64,000 nucleotides of DNA. It comes from Bacteroidales bacterium (lineage in GTDB: Bacteria; Bacteroidota; Bacteroidia; Bacteroidales; UBA932). Position numbers and translations under genes: made by a program. The first letter of the stretch is position 1; every line of letters starts with the position of its first letter. The notes under the pieces are model-generated. The model was not told where the DNA came from and did not search any database. It saw nothing but the letters and a program-made list of their open reading frames with translations. The stretch spans positions 6,949 to 70,948 of the forward strand of contig JAEETP010000002.1 of assembly GCA_016290415.1 (NCBI GenBank). The letters are read 5' to 3'. Of this stretch, positions 21,458 to 31,880 are shown in pieces.

Positions 21458-22261
21458 TTACTCGTGATAATCACTCTCTTTCCATTCAAACTTAACAGTC
21501 TCTGGCACGAGATATCGGCCTATCTTATAGTCGATGTCGGCTTTGTGCGCCTGACTGAGCTGATAGCGGCGCGGTATCCGGAACATCTTCCCGTCTTTGA
21601 TGAAACGGGCACCTGTCTGATGGAAGCGAAAGGCGATATCCTTTGCCACGCACTGCTCTCGAAGGGAGAGTATCCAGTTGTAGTCGCATGGCCGGGCGTC
21701 AACCCCGGACTCTCCTCCTACCGATACCTCGTCTATTGTCTCATCGAGGTATGGAGTCAGATCAAGGGCCGTGAGAAGCGGCGAAGCGATTATGCTTTTA
21801 TGCTTTATCGGCAGGGAACGGAATATGGGCAGGCGATAATCCGCCATCTCCTGATTTTCCACCGTGCATCCCACGATGACATTGTCGTAACCGTCGCCCC
21901 AGTTTTCGGGCACACAATCCAGAAAGCGGTCTATGCGCTTGGTAAAAAAGAAGAACCAGAGGTCGCTGCGAAGTTTCATCATCTGCCAGCATTCCGGCCG
22001 CCAAGCGTCAGCATCCTTCAGCAGGAAATCAGAGGTGAAACAGGTGAATACGATTTTACCACTCTCTATTTTCCACGACTTGTCGCGCTTGCGCCTGACG
22101 GGCAGATAGAAGTTGCCGGTCTTGCGGCACTCGCTGCTCGAGATCTCGCTGCCGTACATCTCGTCCTGACGGTAGACATAGCAATACTTGCAACCGGGGC
22201 TTATCTTGGTGCAACCGTGCCACGGATTCCAGTCTGCATATACTTCCCAGTGCTCTGACAT
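21458..22261 (-). CDS. DUF5131 / phage Gp37-Gp68 family protein
   Basis: N-terminal WNPWHGCTKISPGCKYCY three-Cys motif characteristic of the Gp37/Gp68 family. Its stop abuts the start of the UDG-like gene. Confidence 0.75.
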   Translation of the reverse strand: MSEHWEVYADWNPWHGCTKISPGCKYCYVYRQDEMYGSEISSSECRKTGNFYLPVRRKRDKSWKIESGKIVFTCFTSDFLLKDADAWRPECWQMMKLRSDLWFFFFTKRIDRFLDCVPENWGDGYDNVIVGCTVENQEMADYRLPIFRSLPIKHKSIIASPLLTALDLTPYLDETIDEVSVGGESGVDARPCDYNWILSLREQCVAKDIAFRFHQTGARFIKDGKMFRIPRRYQLSQAHKADIDYKIGRYLVPETVKFEWKESDYHE

Positions 22262-22329
22262 ATTTGAGAAACAAATATAACCCCTCGCTGCTATTTATGC
22301 AAAGGTTTGCGGGATTCTCCACGGTGGAG

Positions 22330-22337
22330 TATATTTG
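22330..22337 (+). promoter_or_regulatory. candidate Bacteroidetes -7 promoter box (TATATTTG)
   Basis: Matches the TAnnTTTG consensus, 21 nt upstream of the ATG at 22359. Confidence 0.4.
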
Positions 22338-22358
22338 TGAAGGAAACAATTTAACGAT

Positions 22359-22628
22359 ATGGAAATGAAATTTTGTCAGAGCTGCGGAATGCCGCTCACA
22401 GAAGAGATGCTGGGCACAAACGCCGACGGCAGCAAGAACGAAGATTATTGCATCTACTGCTACAAGGACGGCGCCTTCACCAAAGACTGCACGATGGACG
22501 AAATGATTGAATTCTGCGCGCAGTTTGTGGACGAGGTAAACAAGAATATGCCCAAACCGATGACCAAGGAAGAATACAAGCAGATGATGCAGCAGTTCTT
22601 CCCCACGTTGAAGCGATGGAAATCATGA
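22359..22628 (+). CDS. zinc-ribbon domain protein
   Basis: 89 aa. FCQSCGMPL...DYCIYCY gives two CxxC pairs. Confidence 0.6.
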   Translation: MEMKFCQSCGMPLTEEMLGTNADGSKNEDYCIYCYKDGAFTKDCTMDEMIEFCAQFVDEVNKNMPKPMTKEEYKQMMQQFFPTLKRWKS

Positions 22629-22921
22629 ATGATATGTTTGAAGTAACCAAAATATACGACACGGCCGACGGCGGCATCCGCAAGGCCTCCTTCCTGACCT
22701 GCGGCATTGTATGCTCGCAGCAGATAGACATTGAACTTGACGGCGACATCATCCGCAAGGTGCAATATACCGGCGGCTGCCACGGCAACACGCAGGGCGT
22801 CTCCATCCTTTGCGAAGGGATGAGAAAAGAGGATGTGATTGCCCGCCTGGAGGGCATTGACTGCAAGGGGCGCGGCACCAGCTGTCCCGACCAGCTTGCC
22901 AGGGCGCTGAAGATGCTTTAG
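22625..22921 (+). CDS. TSCPD domain protein (TIGR03905-like)
   Basis: About 98 aa. Contains GGCHGNTQG and GTSCPDQLA motifs. Its ATG overlaps the upstream stop (ATGA). Confidence 0.7.
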   Translation: MNDMFEVTKIYDTADGGIRKASFLTCGIVCSQQIDIELDGDIIRKVQYTGGCHGNTQGVSILCEGMRKEDVIARLEGIDCKGRGTSCPDQLARALKML

Positions 22922-22926
22922 TGGGT

Positions 22927-23667
22927 ATGAATATCCTCCTTGAAAAGATGTTTGCCAAAGCCGACCCTTCCCAGGTGGCCGGCCTTTCCCGCTTTTTCAA
23001 GACGGGGCCGGGCCAGTATGGCGAAGGCGACAGGTTTCTGGGAATCAAAGTGCCTGTGACCCGGGGAGTGGTAAAGGAATGCTGGCGTGAAGTCGGCATC
23101 AACCAGCTGGAAGAATGCATCGCCAGCGAATATCACGAGGTGCGGCTGGCGGCGCTGCTGGCACTTGTGGAGATCTTCCGCCACGCGAAAAAACGGCCGC
23201 TGATATCTCAGGATGAGTGCGTCCGGTTCTATCTCTCCCATACCGACCGCATCAACAACTGGGACCTGGTGGATCTCTCTTGCTATCCGCTTCTGGGCGA
23301 GTGGCTGCTGGACAAGGACCGTTCGCTGCTCTACGATCTGGCCCGCAGCGGCCACACCATCTGGGAGCAGCGCATCGGCATAGTGAGCACTATGACCTTT
23401 ATCCGCCACGGCCAGATTGCCGACACCTTTGCCATTGCCGATATACTGCTGCACCACCCGCACGACCTTATTCACAAAGCGGTGGGATGGCTGCTTCGGG
23501 AGGCGGGAAAGAAGGACAAGGCTGCCCTCACGGCATATCTGAAAGAAGAAATTGACGGCACACCCCGCTACCTGAAGATGCCCCGCACTATGATGCGCTA
23601 CGCGATAGAGAAGTTCCCTGAAGCGGAACGGCAGAGCTACCTTAACAGACAGAACGTCAGCGCTTGA
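22927..23667 (+). CDS. DNA alkylation repair protein (AlkD-like HEAT-repeat glycosylase family)
   Basis: FFKTGPGQYGEGDRFLGIKVP...NNWDLVD...W.QR... is the pattern of the DNA_alkylation family. I chose the ATG at 22927 rather than the GTG at 22921. Confidence 0.7.
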   Translation: MNILLEKMFAKADPSQVAGLSRFFKTGPGQYGEGDRFLGIKVPVTRGVVKECWREVGINQLEECIASEYHEVRLAALLALVEIFRHAKKRPLISQDECVRFYLSHTDRINNWDLVDLSCYPLLGEWLLDKDRSLLYDLARSGHTIWEQRIGIVSTMTFIRHGQIADTFAIADILLHHPHDLIHKAVGWLLREAGKKDKAALTAYLKEEIDGTPRYLKMPRTMMRYAIEKFPEAERQSYLNRQNVSA

Positions 23668-24223: not shown

Positions 24224-25495
24224 TTAGTCTATGATGTCGAAGCCTGTCCACTTGCGCAGAACCTCGGGCACCTTGATGCCCTCTGCGGTCTGATTGTTTT
24301 CGAGCAGCGCGGCCACTATTCTGGGAAGAGCCAGTGAGCTGCCATTCAAGGTGTGAGCCAGCTGAATCTTGCCGTTCTCGTCTTTATAGCGGAGTTTCAG
24401 GCGGTTTGCCTGATAGGACTCGAAGTTGCTCACCGAACTGACCTCCAGCCAGCGCTTCTGAGCGGCGCTGAACACCTCGAAGTCATAGGTTATGGCACTT
24501 GTAAAACTCATATCGCCGCCACACAGGCGCACGATGCGGAACGGAAGGCCAAGGCTGGCCACCAGTTTCTCTACGTGGGCCACCATACCGTCCAGGGCCT
24601 CATAGGACTTCTCGGGCAGGCTCAGCTGCACGATTTCTACCTTGTCGAACTGATGCAGACGGTTCAGGCCGCGGACATCCTTGCCATAGGAGCCGGCCTC
24701 GCGGCGGAAGCAGGGAGTGTAGGCGGTCATCTTCACGGGGAAGTCTTTCTGACCAAGAATCACATCGCGGTAGATGTTGGTCACGGGCACCTCTGCGGTG
24801 GGCACCAGATAGAAATTGTCCACGGTGGCGTGGTACATCTGGCCCTCCTTGTCGGGGAGCTGGCCGGTACCGAAACCGGAGGCCTCATTTACCATTACGG
24901 GCGGCTCCACCTCCAGATAGCCGGCGGCGCTGTTGAACTCCAGGAAATAGTTGATGAGTGCGCGCTGCAGCTTGGCACCCTTGCCCTTATAAACGGGGAA
25001 TCCGGCGCCGGTGAGCTTCACGCCCAGATCGAAGTCTATGATGTCATATTTGGCGGCAAGCTCCCAGTGCGGCAGGGCATCCTCTCCCAGCTCGGGAATC
25101 TGACCCTCCATCTTCACGATTACGTTGTCGTCGGCATTCTTGCCTTCGGGCACCTGGGCGCAAGGGAGGTTGGGCAGCAGCACCAGCAGGTCGTTCTGCT
25201 GTTTCTCTGCCTGGGCCATCTTCTCTTCCAGAGACTTGGACTGCTCTTTGAGGGCTGCCACAGAGGCCTTTGCTGCCTCGGCCGCCTCGCGGTTGCCGGC
25301 TTTCATCAGGGCACCGATTTCAGCTGCCTTGGCCTTCTGCTGCTGCAGCAGGGCGTCCATCTCGCTCTGGGCGGCGCGGCGCTGCTGGTCGCACTCCAGA
25401 ATCTTGGCAACAATCTCTTTGGCGTCAAAATTCTTGACAGCCAGCCGTTCTACAACAAAATCGGGGTTTTCCCTGAGAAGTTTGAGTGTAAGCAT
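24224..25495 (-). CDS. serS: serine--tRNA ligase
   Basis: 423 aa. N-terminal coiled-coil arm and class II motifs (TPCFRREAGS, GSSLALPR). Confidence 0.9.
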   Translation of the reverse strand: MLTLKLLRENPDFVVERLAVKNFDAKEIVAKILECDQQRRAAQSEMDALLQQQKAKAAEIGALMKAGNREAAEAAKASVAALKEQSKSLEEKMAQAEKQQNDLLVLLPNLPCAQVPEGKNADDNVIVKMEGQIPELGEDALPHWELAAKYDIIDFDLGVKLTGAGFPVYKGKGAKLQRALINYFLEFNSAAGYLEVEPPVMVNEASGFGTGQLPDKEGQMYHATVDNFYLVPTAEVPVTNIYRDVILGQKDFPVKMTAYTPCFRREAGSYGKDVRGLNRLHQFDKVEIVQLSLPEKSYEALDGMVAHVEKLVASLGLPFRIVRLCGGDMSFTSAITYDFEVFSAAQKRWLEVSSVSNFESYQANRLKLRYKDENGKIQLAHTLNGSSLALPRIVAALLENNQTAEGIKVPEVLRKWTGFDIID

Positions 25496-25529: not shown

Positions 25530-25537
25530 CAAATATA
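25530..25537 (-). promoter_or_regulatory. candidate -7 promoter box for serS (TATATTTG on minus strand)
   Basis: The reverse complement of caaatata matches TAnnTTTG, about 35 nt upstream of the serS ATG. Confidence 0.4.
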
Positions 25538-25597
25538 GCAAATTATCCGTTTAGGCGACGATGTTTTATGAAACGACAACTACACGGTGCTGATGGC

Positions 25598-25850
25598 CGC
25601 TCGGGGCAGATGCCTCCGATTACCAAGTGTCTCGGGCAAAAATCTGCCCGCCGACACTTGTAATCTCCGGACAATATCTGCCCCAGCGCTCCCTCCTCCC
25701 CGGTCCCGCCAAAGCGCCTACGCGTTTAATAATGAGATAGCAGCCCCCGGCGAAATCGCCACCGGCAACCTTCCTAAAGTCCTCGGCGCCTCCACCGCCG
25801 CCAGGACGGCTCGCGTATACGAATGAACCCGGCGCTTTGGCAGGACGAGA
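25598..25850 (-). repeat. structured repeat, copy A (full length, about 255 nt)
   Basis: Colinear with the reverse complement of 28261-28516. Shared blocks are gcagatgcctccg, cgggcaaaaatctgccc and accttcctaaagtcctc. The internal stems covary between copies. The strand is inferred from wobble compatibility. Confidence 0.7.
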
Positions 25851-25871
25851 CAAACATCGCCCGCTTTTTCA

Positions 25872-25879
25872 TATCTTTG
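25872..25879 (+). promoter_or_regulatory. candidate -7 promoter box (TATCTTTG) for the ADP-ribosylglycohydrolase gene
   Basis: TAnnTTTG match 22 nt upstream of the ATG at 25902. Confidence 0.45.
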
Positions 25880-25901
25880 CATTAGACACGCCACTGCTAA
25901 T

Positions 25902-27107
25902 ATGGATAGAATAAACGATACCACTTTGGACCGCACCCTCGGATGTATGATCGGCGGTGCCGTAGGCGATGCGCTCGGATATGCTGTCGAGTTTAGTTCT
26001 TGGCGTGAGATTCAGGGTCAGTATGGATCCAACGGCATAAGAGCGTTTCAGTTGGATCGTCGTGGACTTGCGCAGATTTCTGATGATACCCAGATGGCGT
26101 TGTTCACTGCAAATGGGATCCTGTTTGCAATGACAAGAGGCTATACTTATGGCCTTATGGCGCGCATCGATCATTATTGTGAAAATACTTATAGAGATTG
26201 GCTTCACACTCAAGATTGGACCTGTAGGAAAGAGAAGGATTACGGTATTTCCTGGCTGATGGATGTGCCAGAGTTGTATTCACGTCGCGCACCAGGCAAC
26301 ACCTGCTTGAATGCATTACGTGCTATGGATAATGGGAAACCGCTGGAGAATGACAGCTGTGGTTGCGGGGGCGTTATGAGAACTGCGCCCATAGCGCTGT
26401 TTTCGTACATCCATAACTATCTTTCTGATTTCGAAGACAGTCTTCTCGCCTGTGATGATTGTGCTGCCGGTGCGGCGAAGATTACCCATAAGCATCCGCT
26501 CGGTTTTATGCCGTCAGCAGTGCTTAATCATATCCTTATGCGTATTATGGATGGTGCTTGTGAAGCACCTGACGGATTGGTCAGCGTTGTGAGTGAGAGC
26601 CTGTCGGCACTGCCCAATATCAAATCTGAAGATAATTCTGGAAGGACATACGGGATACTCTTCCCAAAACACGTCAAGCAGTTGCAGGACATCGTGGAGC
26701 AAGCCATTAGTCTTGCTGGTACCGACTCGCCAGATCCTGTTGCGATTGAGTCTATCGGCGGAGGTTGGACTGGCCACGAGGCTCTTGCTATCGCCATATA
26801 TAGCGCAGTCAAGCATAGTGACTCGTTTGAGGATGCCATCATAAGCGCTGTCAATCACTCAGGTGACAGTGATTCCACCGGTGCGGTTTGCGGCAACATT
26901 ATGGGTTGCCTTCTGGGGCGGAAGTCAATTCCTCAGAAGTTTATCGAGCATCTTGAGTTAAGGGAGGTCATTGAAGAGATTTCCCACGACCTTTGGACCG
27001 GGTGCATTATTGACGACCATAATCACTATGATAGTGCCGAGCAACGCAAATGGTTCCTAAAGTATGAGGCTCATAGATGGAAAGAGCCTGAGCCCTCAAA
27101 GAATTAA
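25902..27107 (+). CDS. ADP-ribosylglycohydrolase family protein
   Basis: 401 aa. GGAVGDALGYAVEF, SDDTQMALF and HSGDSDSTGAVCGNIMG are the metal-binding motifs of the ARH/DraG fold. Confidence 0.85.
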   Translation: MDRINDTTLDRTLGCMIGGAVGDALGYAVEFSSWREIQGQYGSNGIRAFQLDRRGLAQISDDTQMALFTANGILFAMTRGYTYGLMARIDHYCENTYRDWLHTQDWTCRKEKDYGISWLMDVPELYSRRAPGNTCLNALRAMDNGKPLENDSCGCGGVMRTAPIALFSYIHNYLSDFEDSLLACDDCAAGAAKITHKHPLGFMPSAVLNHILMRIMDGACEAPDGLVSVVSESLSALPNIKSEDNSGRTYGILFPKHVKQLQDIVEQAISLAGTDSPDPVAIESIGGGWTGHEALAIAIYSAVKHSDSFEDAIISAVNHSGDSDSTGAVCGNIMGCLLGRKSIPQKFIEHLELREVIEEISHDLWTGCIIDDHNHYDSAEQRKWFLKYEAHRWKEPEPSKN

Positions 27108-27113
27108 TCAGTT

Positions 27114-27425
27114 ATGGAAAACGAAGACCTGATAAAATACTGCCGCTACTACAAAGGCGAAGAGCAAAATCCGTTTGATAAAGTTGACCAGGACAAGGCG
27201 ATGTTGTGGTTCTACGAGATGTGCTTTGTAAAGCACGGCCAACGATACGACTATAACGACCTTCTCTCGGAGTATGCTGTAGTTGGTCTTACGTCATTTG
27301 CGAAGGACGATGGTGTACCCATAGAATTGAAAGCGTTACTGTTCAACAGGTATTCTAAGACTGCTTATTCAATGATGGATGCCGCTGAGCCTTTCAAAGA
27401 GTTTTATCTGAAGTATTACGGATAA
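27114..27425 (+). CDS. hypothetical small protein (103 aa)
   Basis: Lies 6 nt after the ARH gene with the same AT-richer composition. I recognise no family. Confidence 0.55.
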   Translation: MENEDLIKYCRYYKGEEQNPFDKVDQDKAMLWFYEMCFVKHGQRYDYNDLLSEYAVVGLTSFAKDDGVPIELKALLFNRYSKTAYSMMDAAEPFKEFYLKYYG

Positions 27426-28206
27426 TCGACTTCACCCATTCTAGCACTTTATCGTTGGCCTCAAAAACGAACTCCTGCCCTCTCCCAGCAGAATAAAACC
27501 CATCTTCTTTCCACGCTGTACGATTGTAAGAGATAGGGATCTCACGGAAGAAGGGCGGCAGATTCCACACCCTTCGCTTGCATCCAGACTTGGTTAGGAC
27601 CCTATTCGGTGAATAACACAGACAAGCATAACCAGGAAGGTTCGTATCAAGAGAAAGTATCTCCGTCGGAAGAAACAATGCATTCTTTCCATTCGTCCAA
27701 CGGAAATCAGCTGCGTGTGGATGTATCAACAGCTCTGAAGGAATATCTTTCTTATCTCTAATGATAGAGCCTATTTGCAGATACCCATAAACAATATGGA
27801 GGTCAGGCGCATTTGGCACATATCTAAGTCTGCCATTATGGAATTCTGTTTGACGATACCAGCCGAAGAACAGGAACAAATCTCCAACACCCACTCCTTG
27901 CTTATCCAAATGCGAAAGAGAAGCCCCTACTTGGCCAAATGCGGGTTTCCATTTTACCCGGTGAATGACGCCCTTTCTAATATCCGGATCCAGATGGCAC
28001 GTAGATGAAGCCAGTAATTGCGTCCTTGGCGAAAGCTCACGAATAATCTCATTATATGACATCCCTCCGTATGATAAATCTCCATACTGAACGCTATCCT
28101 TCGATGATGGAATCGGCAAGGACAATAACGTCCCGTCAGGGAGAATAGGACTAGGCATTCCCCCGGCAGCACTGTCAAAACCTTTACGGCTGAATATCAC
28201 TTTCAT
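27394..28206 (-). CDS. hypothetical protein, possibly Nmad3-type (nucleotide-modification-associated) family
   Basis: 270 aa. The N-terminus MKVIFSRKGFDSAAGGMPSPILPDGTLLSLPIP matches a widespread conserved-hypothetical pattern that I recall being named Nmad3. This is unverified. Confidence 0.55.
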   Translation of the reverse strand: MKVIFSRKGFDSAAGGMPSPILPDGTLLSLPIPSSKDSVQYGDLSYGGMSYNEIIRELSPRTQLLASSTCHLDPDIRKGVIHRVKWKPAFGQVGASLSHLDKQGVGVGDLFLFFGWYRQTEFHNGRLRYVPNAPDLHIVYGYLQIGSIIRDKKDIPSELLIHPHAADFRWTNGKNALFLPTEILSLDTNLPGYACLCYSPNRVLTKSGCKRRVWNLPPFFREIPISYNRTAWKEDGFYSAGRGQEFVFEANDKVLEWVKSIIRNTSDKTL

Positions 28207-28228
28207 CGAAACAGGGTATCAATATTTA

Positions 28229-28236
28229 CAAAGGTA
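28229..28236 (-). promoter_or_regulatory. candidate -7 promoter box (TACCTTTG on minus strand)
   Basis: TAnnTTTG match 22 nt upstream of the ATG at 28204-28206. Confidence 0.4.
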
Positions 28237-28260
28237 ACAAAAACCCGCTTCAAGACACCA

Positions 28261-28516
28261 TCGTCCCACCAAACCGCCTCGCCCCCACTTCGACACGGGC
28301 CGTCCTATGGGCCGCGGAGGCGCAGAGGACTTTAGGAAGGTCGCCGGGGGTGATGTCGCCAAGGGGTGCTATCTACTTTTAAACGGGTATGGCGGTTTGG
28401 TGGGACAGGGGTGGAGAGAGCGACGGGGCAGATAGAGTCCGGAGCTTGAATTCTTTCAGGGGCAGATTTTTGCCCGGAAAGAATTGCAAGCGGAGGCATC
28501 TGCCACGAGCGGATGT
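28261..28516 (+). repeat. structured repeat, copy B (full length, inverted relative to copy A)
   Basis: See copy A. Perfect long-range stem 28265-28278 / 28391-28404. Hairpin 28444-28457 / 28477-28491. Confidence 0.7.
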
Positions 28517-28586
28517 CGTTATTTTGGAGTCACAAGAAATGTGGTTATATTTGCCTTGTCTAAGGATAAAGCAAGTGCGCTACATA

Positions 28587-28625
28587 AAACAGAATACCAG
28601 CCCTAACTGGTTTTCTGTTTTTTTA
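28587..28625 (+). terminator. intrinsic terminator-like hairpin plus T-run downstream of repeat copy B
   Basis: aaacagaataccag / ctggttttctgttt forms a 14-bp stem with one mismatch and loop ccctaa, followed by a T-run. No plus-strand CDS lies upstream. Confidence 0.55.
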
Positions 28626-28668
28626 TTAATCGCACTTCACATATAACGATTGATGACTGAAGCGAGAG

Positions 28669-29157
28669 ATGATAGATTCTTCTGAATTATTTGTTCTGTA
28701 CAGACAGTATGAAAGTGGCGGCAAGATTTGGTTAATGTTGGGGCTTTCGAGCACTGATTCTGATTACGATGACATTTTGAAAATAGCAGAGTGCTTGGCT
28801 ATAGAGGGGCACGAGGTCAAGATTCTTCGTGCAGTTCACTATAAAGATCCGCTCTATAACCTGATATTTGGGGAATTGGAGGATACTCGCTACTATCGAA
28901 AATGTCCGGACCTATGGGTAGACGGCTATTATGTCGAATATGAATCATACTCCACACCTCTTCCAAGGAACGCTTTCCGTAATATGCTGCATAACGGACT
29001 GGCGCAATCTGACTGTATCATCATACGCCATTGCAACTTAACAGATGGCTATATGATACGCACACTACGCGGTCACATTCATAATGGGGTCGCTGTGTCT
29101 AAGGTATGGATATTCAACGGAGAGAATCTTCGACTGTTATATAAAACTGAAGGCTGA
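28669..29157 (+). CDS. hypothetical protein (162 aa)
   Basis: AT-richer ORF with no overlapping alternative. KCPDLWVDGYYVEYES is faintly reminiscent of PD-(D/E)xK nuclease cores but lacks the canonical Lys. No family assigned. Confidence 0.5.
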   Translation: MIDSSELFVLYRQYESGGKIWLMLGLSSTDSDYDDILKIAECLAIEGHEVKILRAVHYKDPLYNLIFGELEDTRYYRKCPDLWVDGYYVEYESYSTPLPRNAFRNMLHNGLAQSDCIIIRHCNLTDGYMIRTLRGHIHNGVAVSKVWIFNGENLRLLYKTEG

Positions 29158-29255
29158 CGAGAAACTCGCCAGCCCAGTATGCAGCGAATCCGTAGAATCG
29201 CTACTGCAAATGTACGACTATTATCGGATTATCAAAACTTTTTTTAACCGCCACC

Positions 29256-29309
29256 GGCAGACTATTGCCCGGGAAGAATTGCAAGCGGAGGCATCTGCCC
29301 CAAGCGGAT
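29256..29309 (+). repeat. structured repeat, copy C (truncated, 3'-terminal 54 nt, direct with copy B)
   Basis: ggcagactattgcccgggaagaattgcaagcggaggcatctgccccaagcggat matches 28461-28514 position for position, with about six differences by my hand count. Confidence 0.65.
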
Positions 29310-29314
29310 TATAA

Positions 29315-29347
29315 CAAAAAAAATGGACGGCAATAATTGCCATCCAT
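29315..29347 (-). terminator. intrinsic terminator of rplU-rpmA
   Basis: Hairpin atggacggcaa / ttgccatccat. The single C:A mismatch becomes G:U on the minus strand. The A8 run at 29315-22 gives a U-run on the minus strand, 25 nt after the rpmA stop. Confidence 0.65.
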
Positions 29348-29372
29348 CTACTGTAAGGGTTAGACCCTGTCT

Positions 29373-29642
29373 TTACGCCTCAGCGCCCTTGGCGGGAACT
29401 ATAGAGACATAAGACTTGTTTTCACGGGTCTTCTTGAATGCCACTGTACCATCGACCAACGCATAAAGAGTATGGTCCCTGCCCATTCCGACGTTTTCGC
29501 CGGGATTGTGTACAGTGCCTCTCTGACGCACCAGGATGTTGCCAGCCTTGGCAACCTGACCGCCAAACAATTTAACGCCCAAGCGTTTGCTTTCCGATTC
29601 ACGGCCGTTCTTGGAACTACCGACACCTTTTTTGTGAGCCAT
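29373..29642 (-). CDS. rpmA: 50S ribosomal protein L27
   Basis: [24 protein letters not shown] is the canonical L27 N-terminus. Confidence 0.95.
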
Positions 29643-29962: not shown

Positions 29963-30102
29963 AAAATAATTTTTAAAAATTATTAGCCGTAAGCGGATAT
30001 TTCAATTTAAATACCTCTTTGTCAATGGCTTATCGACTGTCTATAACCCTTTTGGGGAGTGCAAAGATACTAATATTATTTGAATTGCAAAATAATTGTA
30101 TT

Positions 30103-30110
30103 TACATTTG
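30103..30110 (+). promoter_or_regulatory. candidate -7 promoter box (TACATTTG)
   Basis: TAnnTTTG match 25 nt upstream of the ATG at 30136. Confidence 0.4.
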
Positions 30111-30135
30111 TAACACTCCTGTTATTTGGAATGGT

Positions 30136-31191
30136 ATGGTATCTTACTTCGACAGTCAGCACCCCGCACACCGGGACAAATTGATATTCCGTCCGGAAGA
30201 GACATCCCGCCTGGCGGAACAGATAAAAGAGAAATCATTCACCACGCTCTATTCTGCGCCCGGTTTCGGCAAGAGCATACTGGTAAACAAGGCTCTGGGA
30301 CAGCTTAAGGACGAGGGCTATCCCACCACTGTAGTAACTCTGGATCTGTTCAACGTGACCAGCGCCCAGGCTCTGGCCGGCCTCTATGTCAAACTTTTCA
30401 AAAAATATATCGACGACTATAACAAAGACGCCCTGCTGCCCATCAGAATCGACCTGGACAACGTCAGTCTCTCGATAGCCGTCAATCTGCCCAATCTGCT
30501 CTCAAGCGTCACCGACATCAACTTCGTGGTCTGGTTCAAAGAATTCCAGAACATACTGCAGATGGAAGAGGGCGAGAAGATACTGAAGCTGATGGAAAAG
30601 GAGGTGGCCAGCCACAAGGACGTGGCCTACATCGTTACGGGAGAGCAGCTAAACAAGATGAAGGATATCTTCGAAAAGAAGAAATTTTTCTACAAGATAA
30701 ACTGCAACATTCCCCTGGGGCCGCTGCCCAAGAGCGACTGCATAACCTACCTGCGCAACGGCTTCCTGCTCTCGGGCAAAGACCTGGAGATGGAGACCGC
30801 CGACGCCATTTACAAGACCGCGGGCGGCTATCCCAAGGTCATCAACCGACTGGCGGCGATGTGCGACTCCCAGGCTCTGGGATACATCAACAAGAGGATT
30901 CTTCGCGGTGCCGTGGAGAGTTACTACAACGACAACGAATCGGCCTACAGATACACCGTCGGCAACCTGACCGCCAATCAGGTCAACTTTTTGAAAGCGG
31001 TGTGCGACGGGGCCCAGAAATTCAGCTCGGCCGAGGTTCTGAAGAAATACCGGCTGAACAGCAGCGCCAATGTTTTCCGCCTGAAAGAGGCGCTGTCCAA
31101 AAAAGAAATTGTGACATTCGATGCCGACGACCGGGCTTCCATTATTGACCCGATGTTTGAGCATTGGCTTAAAGAGAGATATTTCAAATGA
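30136..31191 (+). CDS. ATPase_2/DUF234-like AAA-type ATP-binding protein with atypical Walker motifs
   Basis: Start taken at MVSYFDSQ. The P-loop-like segment is SAPGFGKS. The Walker-B position reads VVWFKEFQ where this family usually has DEFQ. The C-terminal half is winged-helix-like. The upstream part of the track ORF is AT-rich leader. Confidence 0.6.
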   Translation: MVSYFDSQHPAHRDKLIFRPEETSRLAEQIKEKSFTTLYSAPGFGKSILVNKALGQLKDEGYPTTVVTLDLFNVTSAQALAGLYVKLFKKYIDDYNKDALLPIRIDLDNVSLSIAVNLPNLLSSVTDINFVVWFKEFQNILQMEEGEKILKLMEKEVASHKDVAYIVTGEQLNKMKDIFEKKKFFYKINCNIPLGPLPKSDCITYLRNGFLLSGKDLEMETADAIYKTAGGYPKVINRLAAMCDSQALGYINKRILRGAVESYYNDNESAYRYTVGNLTANQVNFLKAVCDGAQKFSSAEVLKKYRLNSSANVFRLKEALSKKEIVTFDADDRASIIDPMFEHWLKERYFK

Positions 31192-31880
31192 AAAAACTGG
31201 TGGTACTGACCGGCGCCGGTGTGAGCGCCGAGAGCGGAATAAGCACTTTCAGGGACAGCAACGGCCTCTGGGAGAATTATAACGTGGCCGACGTGGCCAC
31301 CATAGAGGGCTGGTGGCGCAACCGCGCCCTGGTGCTGGAATTCTACAACCAGCGCCGCGCCGAACTGGCCGACAAGAAGCCCAACGAGGCCCACAAACTG
31401 ATTGCTGCCCTGGAAAAGGATTTTGACGTGACGGTGGTCACCCAGAATATTGACAACCTGCACGAGCAGGGCGGCAGCACCAAAATCATCCATCTTCACG
31501 GCGAATCCACCAAAGTGCGCCCGGAGGACTGCGAGCAGGACTGCAAGACCATAGACGTGGGTTACAAGCCGGTAAACCTGGGCGATACCGACAGCCGCGG
31601 CGTGCAGCTGAGACCCAACATCGTGTGGTTCGGCGAGGCGGTGCCCAAGTTTGACGCAGCCGCCAGAATCGCCTCCCAGGCAGACATTATGCTTATTGTG
31701 GGCACCTCGCTGCAGGTATACCCCGCCGCCGGGCTGGTGCAATATGCCCCTGCCGGCATCCCCATCTATCTGATTGACCCCAAGCCCATCCACCTGAATA
31801 TGAAAGGCTTCACTCAGATAGAAGACGTGGCCACCAAGGGAATGGAGCGCTTTATGGAAATTGCCAAAACACTGAAATAA
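31188..31880 (+). CDS. cobB: SIR2-family NAD-dependent protein deacylase (short, Zn-Cys-less form)
   Basis: GAGVSAESGISTFR, TQNIDNLHE, catalytic HLHG, and VGTSLQVYPAA. Its ATG overlaps the ATPase stop (ATGA). Confidence 0.85.
   Translation: MKKLVVLTGAGVSAESGISTFRDSNGLWENYNVADVATIEGWWRNRALVLEFYNQRRAELADKKPNEAHKLIAALEKDFDVTVVTQNIDNLHEQGGSTKIIHLHGESTKVRPEDCEQDCKTIDVGYKPVNLGDTDSRGVQLRPNIVWFGEAVPKFDAAARIASQADIMLIVGTSLQVYPAAGLVQYAPAGIPIYLIDPKPIHLNMKGFTQIEDVATKGMERFMEIAKTLK

Follow-up and report, generated by a model that had tools for sequence, protein, structure and literature searches.

Analysis of the 64,000-nt stretch of Bacteroidales DNA presented above (hereafter the window, at its whole length) revealed a discrete islet of 3.78 kb between the genes serS (positions 24224-25495, minus strand) and rpmA (29373-29642, minus strand). 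The explanation that we favour, and hold to be reasonably probable, is that this islet was acquired and is now carried by most strains, though not all, of an uncultured Bacteroidales species from the gut of ruminants, that it consists of three separately promoted units of conflict genes and that its core is an orphan immunity module directed against the MuF toxins of phages. The first unit comprises an ADP-ribosylglycohydrolase gene (ARH; 25902-27107, plus strand, 401 aa) and, starting 6 nt 3' of it, the gene of a 103-aa protein (p103; 27114-27425, plus strand), which together would form a two-layer immunity module against the Bxa-type, MuF-fused ADP-ribosyltransferases (ARTs) of Bacteroidales phages. 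The second unit is a solo Nmad3 gene (27394-28206, minus strand, 270 aa), convergent with p103 with a 32-nt overlap and belonging to a family of the defence-island type. The third is p162 (28669-29157, plus strand, 162 aa), which would be a nuclease domain that phages carry as another C-terminal cargo of MuF proteins. The four genes lie where an earlier, sequence-only reading of the window had placed them.

The inserted nature of the islet was established by comparison with related loci. A scan with SerS, in which one genome per species was retained, yielded 80 loci, mostly from named Bacteroidales with a few from outside the order, and the best SerS match (92% identity) came from a goat-rumen metagenome-assembled genome. 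The gene order rplU-rpmA-serS(-ruvC) was found in about 30 of the 80, often with a SIR2 and an ATPase gene upstream, and the gaps between rpmA and serS measured from about 15 to 870 nt. None of the four island genes was present between rpmA and serS in any of the 80 loci. Within the species itself, every contig encoding an identical Nmad3 protein carries the four-gene block at the same place, while contig L298 encodes an identical 423-aa SerS with rpmA just 110 nt upstream and without the island, and thus represents an empty allele. When L298 was aligned with the window by BLAST, the breaks fell at 29314 and 25537, with 8 nt of the empty allele exchanged for the insert, and in the public sequencing run X4 one contig joins 25486 to 29314. 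The empty allele, taken together with the absence of the island genes beside serS in the relatives that share the rpmA-serS order, indicates that the island was inserted. It is therefore not a core locus of this group but a horizontally acquired one, as the sequence-only reading had thought possible, and it shows presence/absence polymorphism within the species.

The insert proper spans 25538-29313 (3,776 bp). Directly outside it lie, on one side, the promoter box of serS (TAtaTTTG, 25530-25537, minus strand) and, on the other, an intrinsic terminator of rpmA (29315-29348, minus strand), read from the sequence as a hairpin followed by eight T residues and found in the empty allele as well. The island had been described as delimited by structured repeats; the repeats are real, but its true ends are those defined by the empty allele. 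No clean target-site duplication was detected at the ends, which show just an imperfect TATAAT/TATATT pair, and no tRNA or tmRNA gene was found, so that there is no integration site of the tRNA type. In gut metagenomes of sheep, cattle and goat the island was intact, single-copy, contiguous and covered at the depth of its flanks, from which it follows that the filled allele is common and the empty allele rarer. Low-depth contigs over ARH and Nmad3 were recovered from ruminant metatranscriptomes, a weak signal compatible with expression.

The rpmA-serS site is a variable junction. In other loci it holds a YkuD-like lipoprotein gene (L010:868-1410, the closest relative), a gene resembling superoxide dismutase (L021:4796-5467) or an esterase-like gene (L064:8766-9818), all recognised by motif. 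The junction was also considered as a dedicated hotspot for mobile elements, and this was rejected, the relatives having unrelated ordinary genes or nothing at this place.

Base composition agreed with a foreign origin. The interval 25851-29372 has a GC content of 46.6% against 54.0% for the window, so the island is AT-richer as had been claimed; only 1.7% of windows of equal size reach so low a value, all of them overlapping the island region, and the lowest-GC stretch of 3.5 kb in the window falls within that region. At third codon positions the GC content (GC3) is 42-54% in the four island genes compared with 66-76% in serS, ruvC, alkD, SIR2 and the MFS gene; rpmA and rplU are also lowish (52-56%).

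Three of the island proteins had been called orphans, a description that does not hold: about 154 homologue clusters exist for p103, which matches phrog_19606 (E=4e-19), more than 200 for p162 and more than 7,700 for Nmad3. For p103, which belongs to no Pfam family and gave nothing in a profile search against PDB sequences, the genomic context in phages was informative. Among 80 phage contigs with a p103 homologue, an ARH gene was nearby in 71, and in 61 it was directly upstream on the same strand. About 75 of them also carry, alongside and convergent, a gene for a protein of about 860 aa that adjoins the portal gene. In each of 26 diverse representatives the C-terminal 270 residues of this protein matched ADPrib_exo_Tox (best E=3e-25), and the whole protein, with a head-morphogenesis region at its N-terminus, matched the PHROG annotated as Bxa ADP-ribosyl transferase from end to end. 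The same arrangement of ARH, p103 homologue and Bxa-like gene is found in the isolated Bacteroides phage Versailles, whose 107-aa homologue (p107) falls in phrog_19606 with E=2e-58.

Bxa is a MuF-fused ART from a Bacteroides stercoris prophage that is toxic to bacteria and is neutralised by two adjacent, experimentally validated immunity proteins: BAH, an ARH1-like hydrolase with the catalytic residue E15, and Bsi, a small protein that binds the toxin's active site and has K89 and E92 as essential residues (Alexei et al., J Biol Chem 2024, PMC11699363). Since that paper prints no sequences, identity was tested by means of its numbered interface residues. The 869-aa protein of phage Versailles matched the listed Bxa residues at 16 of 16 positions, the Versailles ARH carries the E15 of BAH, and in p107, with one constant offset of 3 residues, 9 of the 11 Bsi interface residues were matched, a score not equalled in 20,000 shuffles, among which a single one attained the maximum of 7. 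Hence the p103 family is the Bsi family. The island p103 is approximately 40% identical to the Versailles Bsi orthologue and retains six of the 11 interface positions (D27, E53, N78, R79, K82 and Y85). Its N78-R79 pair is invariant across the family and corresponds to N85-R86 of Bsi, of which R86 touches Bxa E818 in the published model (PMC11699363). By analogy, p103 is predicted to be a structural immunity protein that would bind its toxin and occlude the ART active site through the invariant Asn-Arg motif.

The ARH protein matches Pfam PF03747 (ADP_ribosyl_GH) with E=1e-60. Alignment with DraG revealed the motifs GDALG..E30-F, S60-D61-D62-T63 and D322-x-D324-S-T326, so that the metal-binding residues and the catalytic Glu are both kept, whereas a lack of catalytic residues was part of what the sequence-only reading had named as a refutation; E30 occupies the position of BAH E15, as read by eye from the motif G-D-x-x-G-x-x-x-E-F. 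The protein belongs to a long ARH subfamily distant from BAH, and a single-sequence scan of viral contigs with this long form gave no match. The candidate assignments as a DraG or a Tri1 orthologue were rejected, the scores (89.7 bits for DraG and 73.9 bits for Tri1) being far below the NCBIfam equivalog cut-offs (337 and 490, respectively); of the comparison with Tri1 made earlier, the functional logic stands and the relationship does not.

Because the gene downstream of ARH encodes a Bsi homologue and the order ARH-p103 copies the order BAH-Bsi, the proposal that ARH confers immunity to an ART toxin is strongly supported, and ARH is predicted to be an enzymatic immunity protein, the functional equivalent of BAH. 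In such a two-layer scheme it would hydrolyse N-linked (arginine-type) ADP-ribose from proteins that are still modified despite p103. In the PDB entry 8za7, chain B (Lmo0066) is, among solved structures, the nearest relative of the phage Bxa-type ART profile and chain A (Lmo0067) is a relative of ARH; the entry is apparently a Listeria ART-ARH complex, consistent with ART-ARH pairs forming complexes. A literature search found no open paper on Lmo0066/Lmo0067 or 8za7.

Apart from p162, the window contains no ART, MuF or Bxa-like sequence, and the ARH-p103 pair is thus an orphan at least at the 64-kb scale. The missing partner is predicted to belong to the Bxa-like ARTs of Bacteroidales phages, toxins joined to the head-morphogenesis protein MuF and packed into the phage heads. 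As no toxin gene accompanies the pair, its likely benefit is the protection of a non-producer from an external toxin, which would arrive in phage particles or from lysing lysogens. The coupling of a Bsi-like protein with an eraser of ADP-ribose extends beyond the two ARH forms. In loci L090 and L091, where another Bacteroidales genome has a close relative of the block, a bacterial PARG, which is an ADP-ribose eraser non-homologous to ARH, lies beside the Bsi-like gene and ARH is absent. The Bsi family is therefore paired with three different erasers (short ARH, long ARH and PARG), which argues for functional coupling. The order in these two loci (L090:1-5700 and L091:975-6660) is a 667-aa protein with a weak radical-SAM match, Nmad3 (74% identity), a convergent Bsi-like p105 (79%), PARG, a free-standing LPD3 gene and the structured repeat.

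The homologues of p162 are 65-77% identical to it, all free-standing and placed in unrelated housekeeping contexts. Comparison with Pfam CdiA_C (PF18451) gave 16.2 bits (E=0.012), below the cut-off of 26.6, and several homologues carry precomputed hits to the same family. The AlphaFold2 model of p162 (pLDDT 87) had as its top Foldseek match, and its sole high-probability structural match, 4g6v_A, the CdiA-CT of B. pseudomallei (probability 0.99, E=0.02, TM 0.49-0.58); a profile search against PDB sequences gave nothing. In addition p162 matches the C-terminus of phrog_19194 (E=4e-23), and the last ~155 residues of phage Phage_Mu_F proteins, whose genes directly follow that of a Mu-type portal, are a p162-like domain (34% identity, E=4e-28), with the motif YYRKCPD...E.E in common. 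MuF is the same scaffold as that carrying the ART domain of Bxa. An alignment-based scan identified such domains in 10 viral contigs; neither a single-sequence scan of viral contigs nor tblastn against isolated phages gave a match. Taken from sequence and model, p162 is likely a free-standing nuclease domain of the CdiA-CT-like PD-(D/E)XK toxin type, homologous to a phage MuF cargo; it is a stand-alone open reading frame (ORF) with no N-terminal delivery region.

Conservation of the p162 unit begins at the ATG and continues for about 55 nt beyond the stop codon. The 3' tail (29158-29214), with 83-95% identity between unrelated loci, exceeds the coding sequence in conservation and shows in gut metagenomes a 3-10x excess of depth with alternative flanks. 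Inside it, at 29207-29214, lies a minus-strand TAcaTTTG box that could start an RNA antisense to the 3' end of p162, an arrangement that would fit control of a toxin-like nuclease by an antitoxin of the RNA type. The upstream region (28546-28628, plus strand) has a TAtaTTTG box at 28546-28553, 115 nt before the ATG, followed at 28586-28628 by a hairpin of 15 bp with a T-run, which resembles a terminator or attenuator within a presumed 5' leader.

The sequence-only reading had seen the 270-aa protein as possibly Nmad3-like, and its identity is clear: it matches PF18754 over profile positions 1-246 of 247 with E=8e-65 and 219 bits against a cut-off of 27. Residues H71, D73, R83, Q92 and E245 are invariant in the family and H162 and H164 nearly so, which suggests an enzyme. 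Its AlphaFold2 model (pLDDT 91) found nothing significant by Foldseek in PDB and BFVD, the weak top hits being PUA-like barrels of the EVE/ASCH kind, which serve as a lead only, and a profile search against PDB sequences likewise gave nothing. Upstream of the gene in the window is the repeat element in place of Nmad2. Recurrent neighbours in the 106 Nmad3 loci with usable context include, besides Nmad2, WYL regulators, an HD/NT5C protein, an RNase T-like exonuclease and DUF4268, and further copies adjoin Type I restriction-modification, GmrSD or WYL genes. The literature search returned no relevant paper on Nmad3, and the validated NMAD defence system (DefensePredictor) uses Nmad2, not Nmad3. 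The role of Nmad3 in the island is thus read from its neighbours, the family being typical of defence islands.

Three copies of a structured repeat of about 255 nt were identified in the window, all in the island. Copy 1 (25597-25860, plus strand) lies 5' of ARH; its outer hairpin is called part A (25597-25649, type 1), and its inner domain has a long-range stem of 16 bp. Copy 2 (28255-28512, minus strand) lies 5' of Nmad3, has an outer hairpin of type 2 and is inverted with respect to copy 1. Copy 3 (29256-29309, minus strand) is partial, with a 52-nt part A of type 2 only, inverted relative to copy 1 and direct relative to copy 2 (91% identity). The outermost part A copies are thus inverted and lie 4 nt from the rpmA-proximal end of the island (29313) and 59 nt from the other end. 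Copies 1 and 2 are oriented as the gene that they precede and are followed by the promoter box of that gene. These TAnnTTTG boxes had been noted before and were confirmed for ARH (TAtcTTTG, 25872-25879, plus strand) and Nmad3 (TAccTTTG, 28229-28236, minus strand), each 22 nt before the ATG. Counting the motif over the window gave 35 occurrences against 23±4.4 expected, a number reached in none of 100 shuffles; the boxes often form divergent intergenic pairs, consistent with promoters of the Bacteroidetes type.

From the four long copies RNAalifold predicted 61 pairs. Double changes of the compensatory kind occur in 11, and one 13-bp stem of two sequence types accounts for eight of them; only two types underlie the counts. 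Of all fetched loci, just L090 and L091 have further copies, which sit at the margin of the block, upstream of the LPD3 gene. The two loci are 99% identical up to the repeat, have different outer hairpin types and then diverge fully, which indicates that the element acts as a recombination joint. Further mosaicism was seen within the species. About 200 nt of the inner part of copy 1 (~25654-25856) are missing in L005, L006 and L008, the junction showing a 3-nt ACA microhomology, and either independent insertion or microhomology deletion may be responsible; in strain L004 about 65 nt are missing from the middle copy as well. Nine viral contigs contain the 19-nt core of the terminal hairpin, without extended similarity or island genes, and this was treated as chance. 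By our account the repeat, which separates and brackets the units, would be the probable recombination joint for assembly and movement of the cassettes, the enzyme being encoded elsewhere. In agreement with the sequence-only reading, which had recognised no mobility gene, tblastn of four Bacteroidales integrases against the window, a limited test for tyrosine recombinases, gave no match at E<0.1.

Several observations weigh against this explanation. The ARH of the island is not an orthologue of BAH (257 aa), with which BLASTP aligns the C-terminal metal motif only. p103 has no equivalent of the essential E92 of Bsi, and with this loss and the limited retention of interface residues neutralisation of Bxa itself cannot be assumed; the target toxin probably differs. 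Close relatives of p103 also occur without a hydrolase: in L102-L103 a Bsi-family gene 83% identical to p103 is convergent with McrBC, and in L105-L108 (L105:7001-7306) one is translationally coupled behind an HTH_3 gene in an integrase-bearing element, a cluster recorded on 255 contigs. The functions of the family may therefore exceed ART immunity. A Bxa-like prophage could exist elsewhere in the genome, in which case the pair would not be orphan. For p162, the assignment as a toxin relies on sub-threshold Pfam and Foldseek scores, and beside the gene no ORF with family support and no immunity gene was found. The evidence for mobility of the repeat is circumstantial, consisting of four copies of two types, with no target-site duplication and no recombinase found. 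Finally, in the literature that was found, it is not established that MuF toxins reach other bacteria.

A wider explanation, which we regard as rather unlikely, would make the island one instance of an undescribed cassette system of ruminant-gut Bacteroidales. The ~255-nt element would then resemble an integron attC site or the end of a non-autonomous transposon and would move individually promoted counter-measures against capsid-delivered phage effectors, such as MuF toxins and polyvalent-protein domains, with p162 held in check by antisense RNA from the box in its 3' tail. If it were true, bacteria would maintain mobile islets of immunity against phage effectors, and these islets would be direct evidence from nature for an action of MuF toxins such as Bxa on bacteria.

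Distinctly unlikely, in our judgement, is that ARH, p103 and Nmad3 constitute one ADP-ribose-linked module of nucleotide or nucleic-acid modification or defence, in which Nmad3 would act on or sense the substrate, the hydrolase would reverse the modification and p103 would regulate. Two lineages (74-79% identity) retain the Nmad3/p103 pair in its convergent, overlapping form with an ADP-ribose eraser adjacent each time, ARH in one and PARG in the other; inverted repeat copies enclose the three genes; Nmad3 resides in defence islands elsewhere; and the EVE/ASCH-like hits of its model hint at recognition of modified nucleic acids. The two lineages are, however, close enough for the pair to come from shared ancestry, and the wider survey does not bear the linkage out. 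An ARH-like gene was present in about one and p103 in three of 107 Nmad3 loci, Nmad3 in none of the 80 phage loci with p103, and the recurrent partner of Nmad3 is Nmad2, directly upstream of it in 50 of the 106 loci with usable context. Moreover, the precedent of BAH followed by Bsi fully accounts for ARH followed by p103. The modification module of ARH and Nmad3 that had been suggested earlier accordingly found little support.

A small array resembling rAID-1 or an integron, with all genes serving immunity to interbacterial toxins of type VI secretion systems (T6SS) or contact-dependent inhibition (CDI) and the recombinase located elsewhere, is decidedly improbable. Among the reported hallmarks of rAID-1 are skewed GC content, structured intergenic elements of repetitive sequence and genes with a promoter each; ARH and p103 fit a cargo of immunity-gene homologues, the repeat marks a recombination joint in L090 and L091, and immunity of the ARH type to a T6SS ART has a precedent in Tre1/Tri1. 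An XerD-type recombinase is nevertheless neither adjacent nor detected in the window by the limited test described above, p162 is toxin-like, Nmad3 belongs to no known immunity family, ARH is far below the Tri1 cut-off and the sequence link of p103 is to the immunity protein of a phage MuF toxin and not to T6SS immunity. Of the acquired defence cluster of Bacteroidales that had been invoked, an orphan immunity islet is the reading that we favour; a rAID-1 cluster as defined it is not.

Decay of a Bxa-type prophage, with deletion of its toxin and structural genes and the islet as all that is left, we consider highly improbable. Pairs of ARH and Bsi-like genes and the p162-like domain are otherwise phage-borne. 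The boundaries against the empty allele are clean, no phage structural genes, integrase or attachment-site remnants were found, the ARH subfamily differs from that of the phage BAH, Nmad3 is seldom met in phages (in 15 viral contigs and, by tblastn, in no isolated phage) and the genes, all intact, are served by promoters of their own and persist in sheep, cattle and goat samples alike, all of which speaks against decay.

ARH3-type enzymes hydrolyse O-acetyl-ADP-ribose, and a CobB-like SIR2 gene lies 4 kb away (31188-31880), but a housekeeping function of ARH on that compound or on regulatory ADP-ribosylation tied to this sirtuin, the other genes being passengers, is extremely improbable, the sirtuin being core and syntenic in relatives without ARH and ARH being accessory, compositionally foreign, polymorphic and coupled to a Bsi-family gene 6 nt downstream.

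The SIR2 gene overlaps by 4 nt the gene of a 390-aa AAA_22-like ATPase (30019-31880 for the two together), beside rplU. The pair is syntenic in many related species, where the ATPase is just 26-50% identical, and this synteny indicates a core pair and not a defence pair. None of the PADLOC-DB 2.0 hidden Markov models matched the four island proteins or this ATPase. On the other side, left of ruvC (21458-23667), are genes for AlkD-like DNA_alkylation, TSCPD, Zn_ribbon_2 and DUF5131 proteins; the closest relative, L010, has no counterpart of them in about 9 kb downstream of ruvC, and this side may be variable too. A search of Rfam over the whole window gave nothing at the gathering threshold, and the single match at E≤1 within the island, a fragment of a long non-coding RNA, was judged implausible.

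Bxa is a phage-encoded factor that helps Bacteroides to colonise the gut by modifying host-cell proteins; it also kills bacteria, and the 2024 study left open its action on bacteria other than the producer (PMC11699363). The orphan pair in a strain-variable islet suggests that the toxin is a threat against which phage-free bacteria, too, have to be protected. A pair with no toxin in the window that remains intact across ruminant samples is the pattern expected if non-producers meet such toxins in nature, and the filled and empty alleles offer a natural comparison for protection against MuF-ART phages or lysates. For two proteins that had no name before, a likely family is also indicated, Bsi-like proteins for p103 and MuF-cargo nuclease domains for p162, and the structured repeat is described as a marker of cassette joints in at least two genomes.

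Comparison with known systems places the island nearest to Bxa-BAH-Bsi of the B. stercoris prophage. Both have an ARH-fold hydrolase followed by a Bsi-family protein of about 105 aa, the catalytic Glu and metal motifs, the Asn-Arg pair and hosts of the order Bacteroidales. The island differs in lying between housekeeping genes without a Bxa/MuF toxin or prophage in 64 kb, in the long subfamily of its hydrolase, in the E92 position of p103 and in having a pair whose immunity function is predicted. With the acquired interbacterial defence (AID) and rAID-1 clusters of Bacteroidales it shares orphan immunity genes, horizontal acquisition, skewed GC content and repetitive intergenic sequence. By definition rAID-1 has a recombinase of the XerD family next to it, and its arrays hold as many as 31 immunity genes, directed against toxins of T6SS and further interbacterial toxins (Ross et al., bioRxiv 10.1101/471110), whereas the island has four genes, no recombinase that was found, an immunity pair aimed at a phage-borne toxin class and a toxin-like p162.

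Pairs of the Tre1/Tri1, DraT/DraG and DarT/DarG type resemble the predicted action of ARH in that an ART is neutralised by enzymatic removal of the modification. The island ARH is neither a NADAR nor a macrodomain, and its predicted substrate is N-linked ADP-ribose on protein, not DNA. Orphan erasers have a precedent in phages, namely the NADAR protein AdfN (PMC11825919) and the ARH-like DarG3 (PMC13069673); those sit in a phage and oppose a bacterial toxin, whereas the island eraser sits in a bacterium and would oppose a phage toxin. p162 shares with MuF toxins and CdiA-CT (Bp1026b/EC869-type) the homology to the Phage_Mu_F C-terminus and, as its top structural match suggests, perhaps the fold of 4g6v_A, and differs from them as a conserved single gene with a hyper-conserved 3' tail and without a MuF or CdiA delivery region or an adjacent immunity gene. 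The island Nmad3 is full-length and has the invariant residues of its family, as in the Nmad2-Nmad3 operons (PF18753/PF18754, often with WYL), although it is convergent with a Bsi-family gene and has neither Nmad2 nor a WYL regulator.

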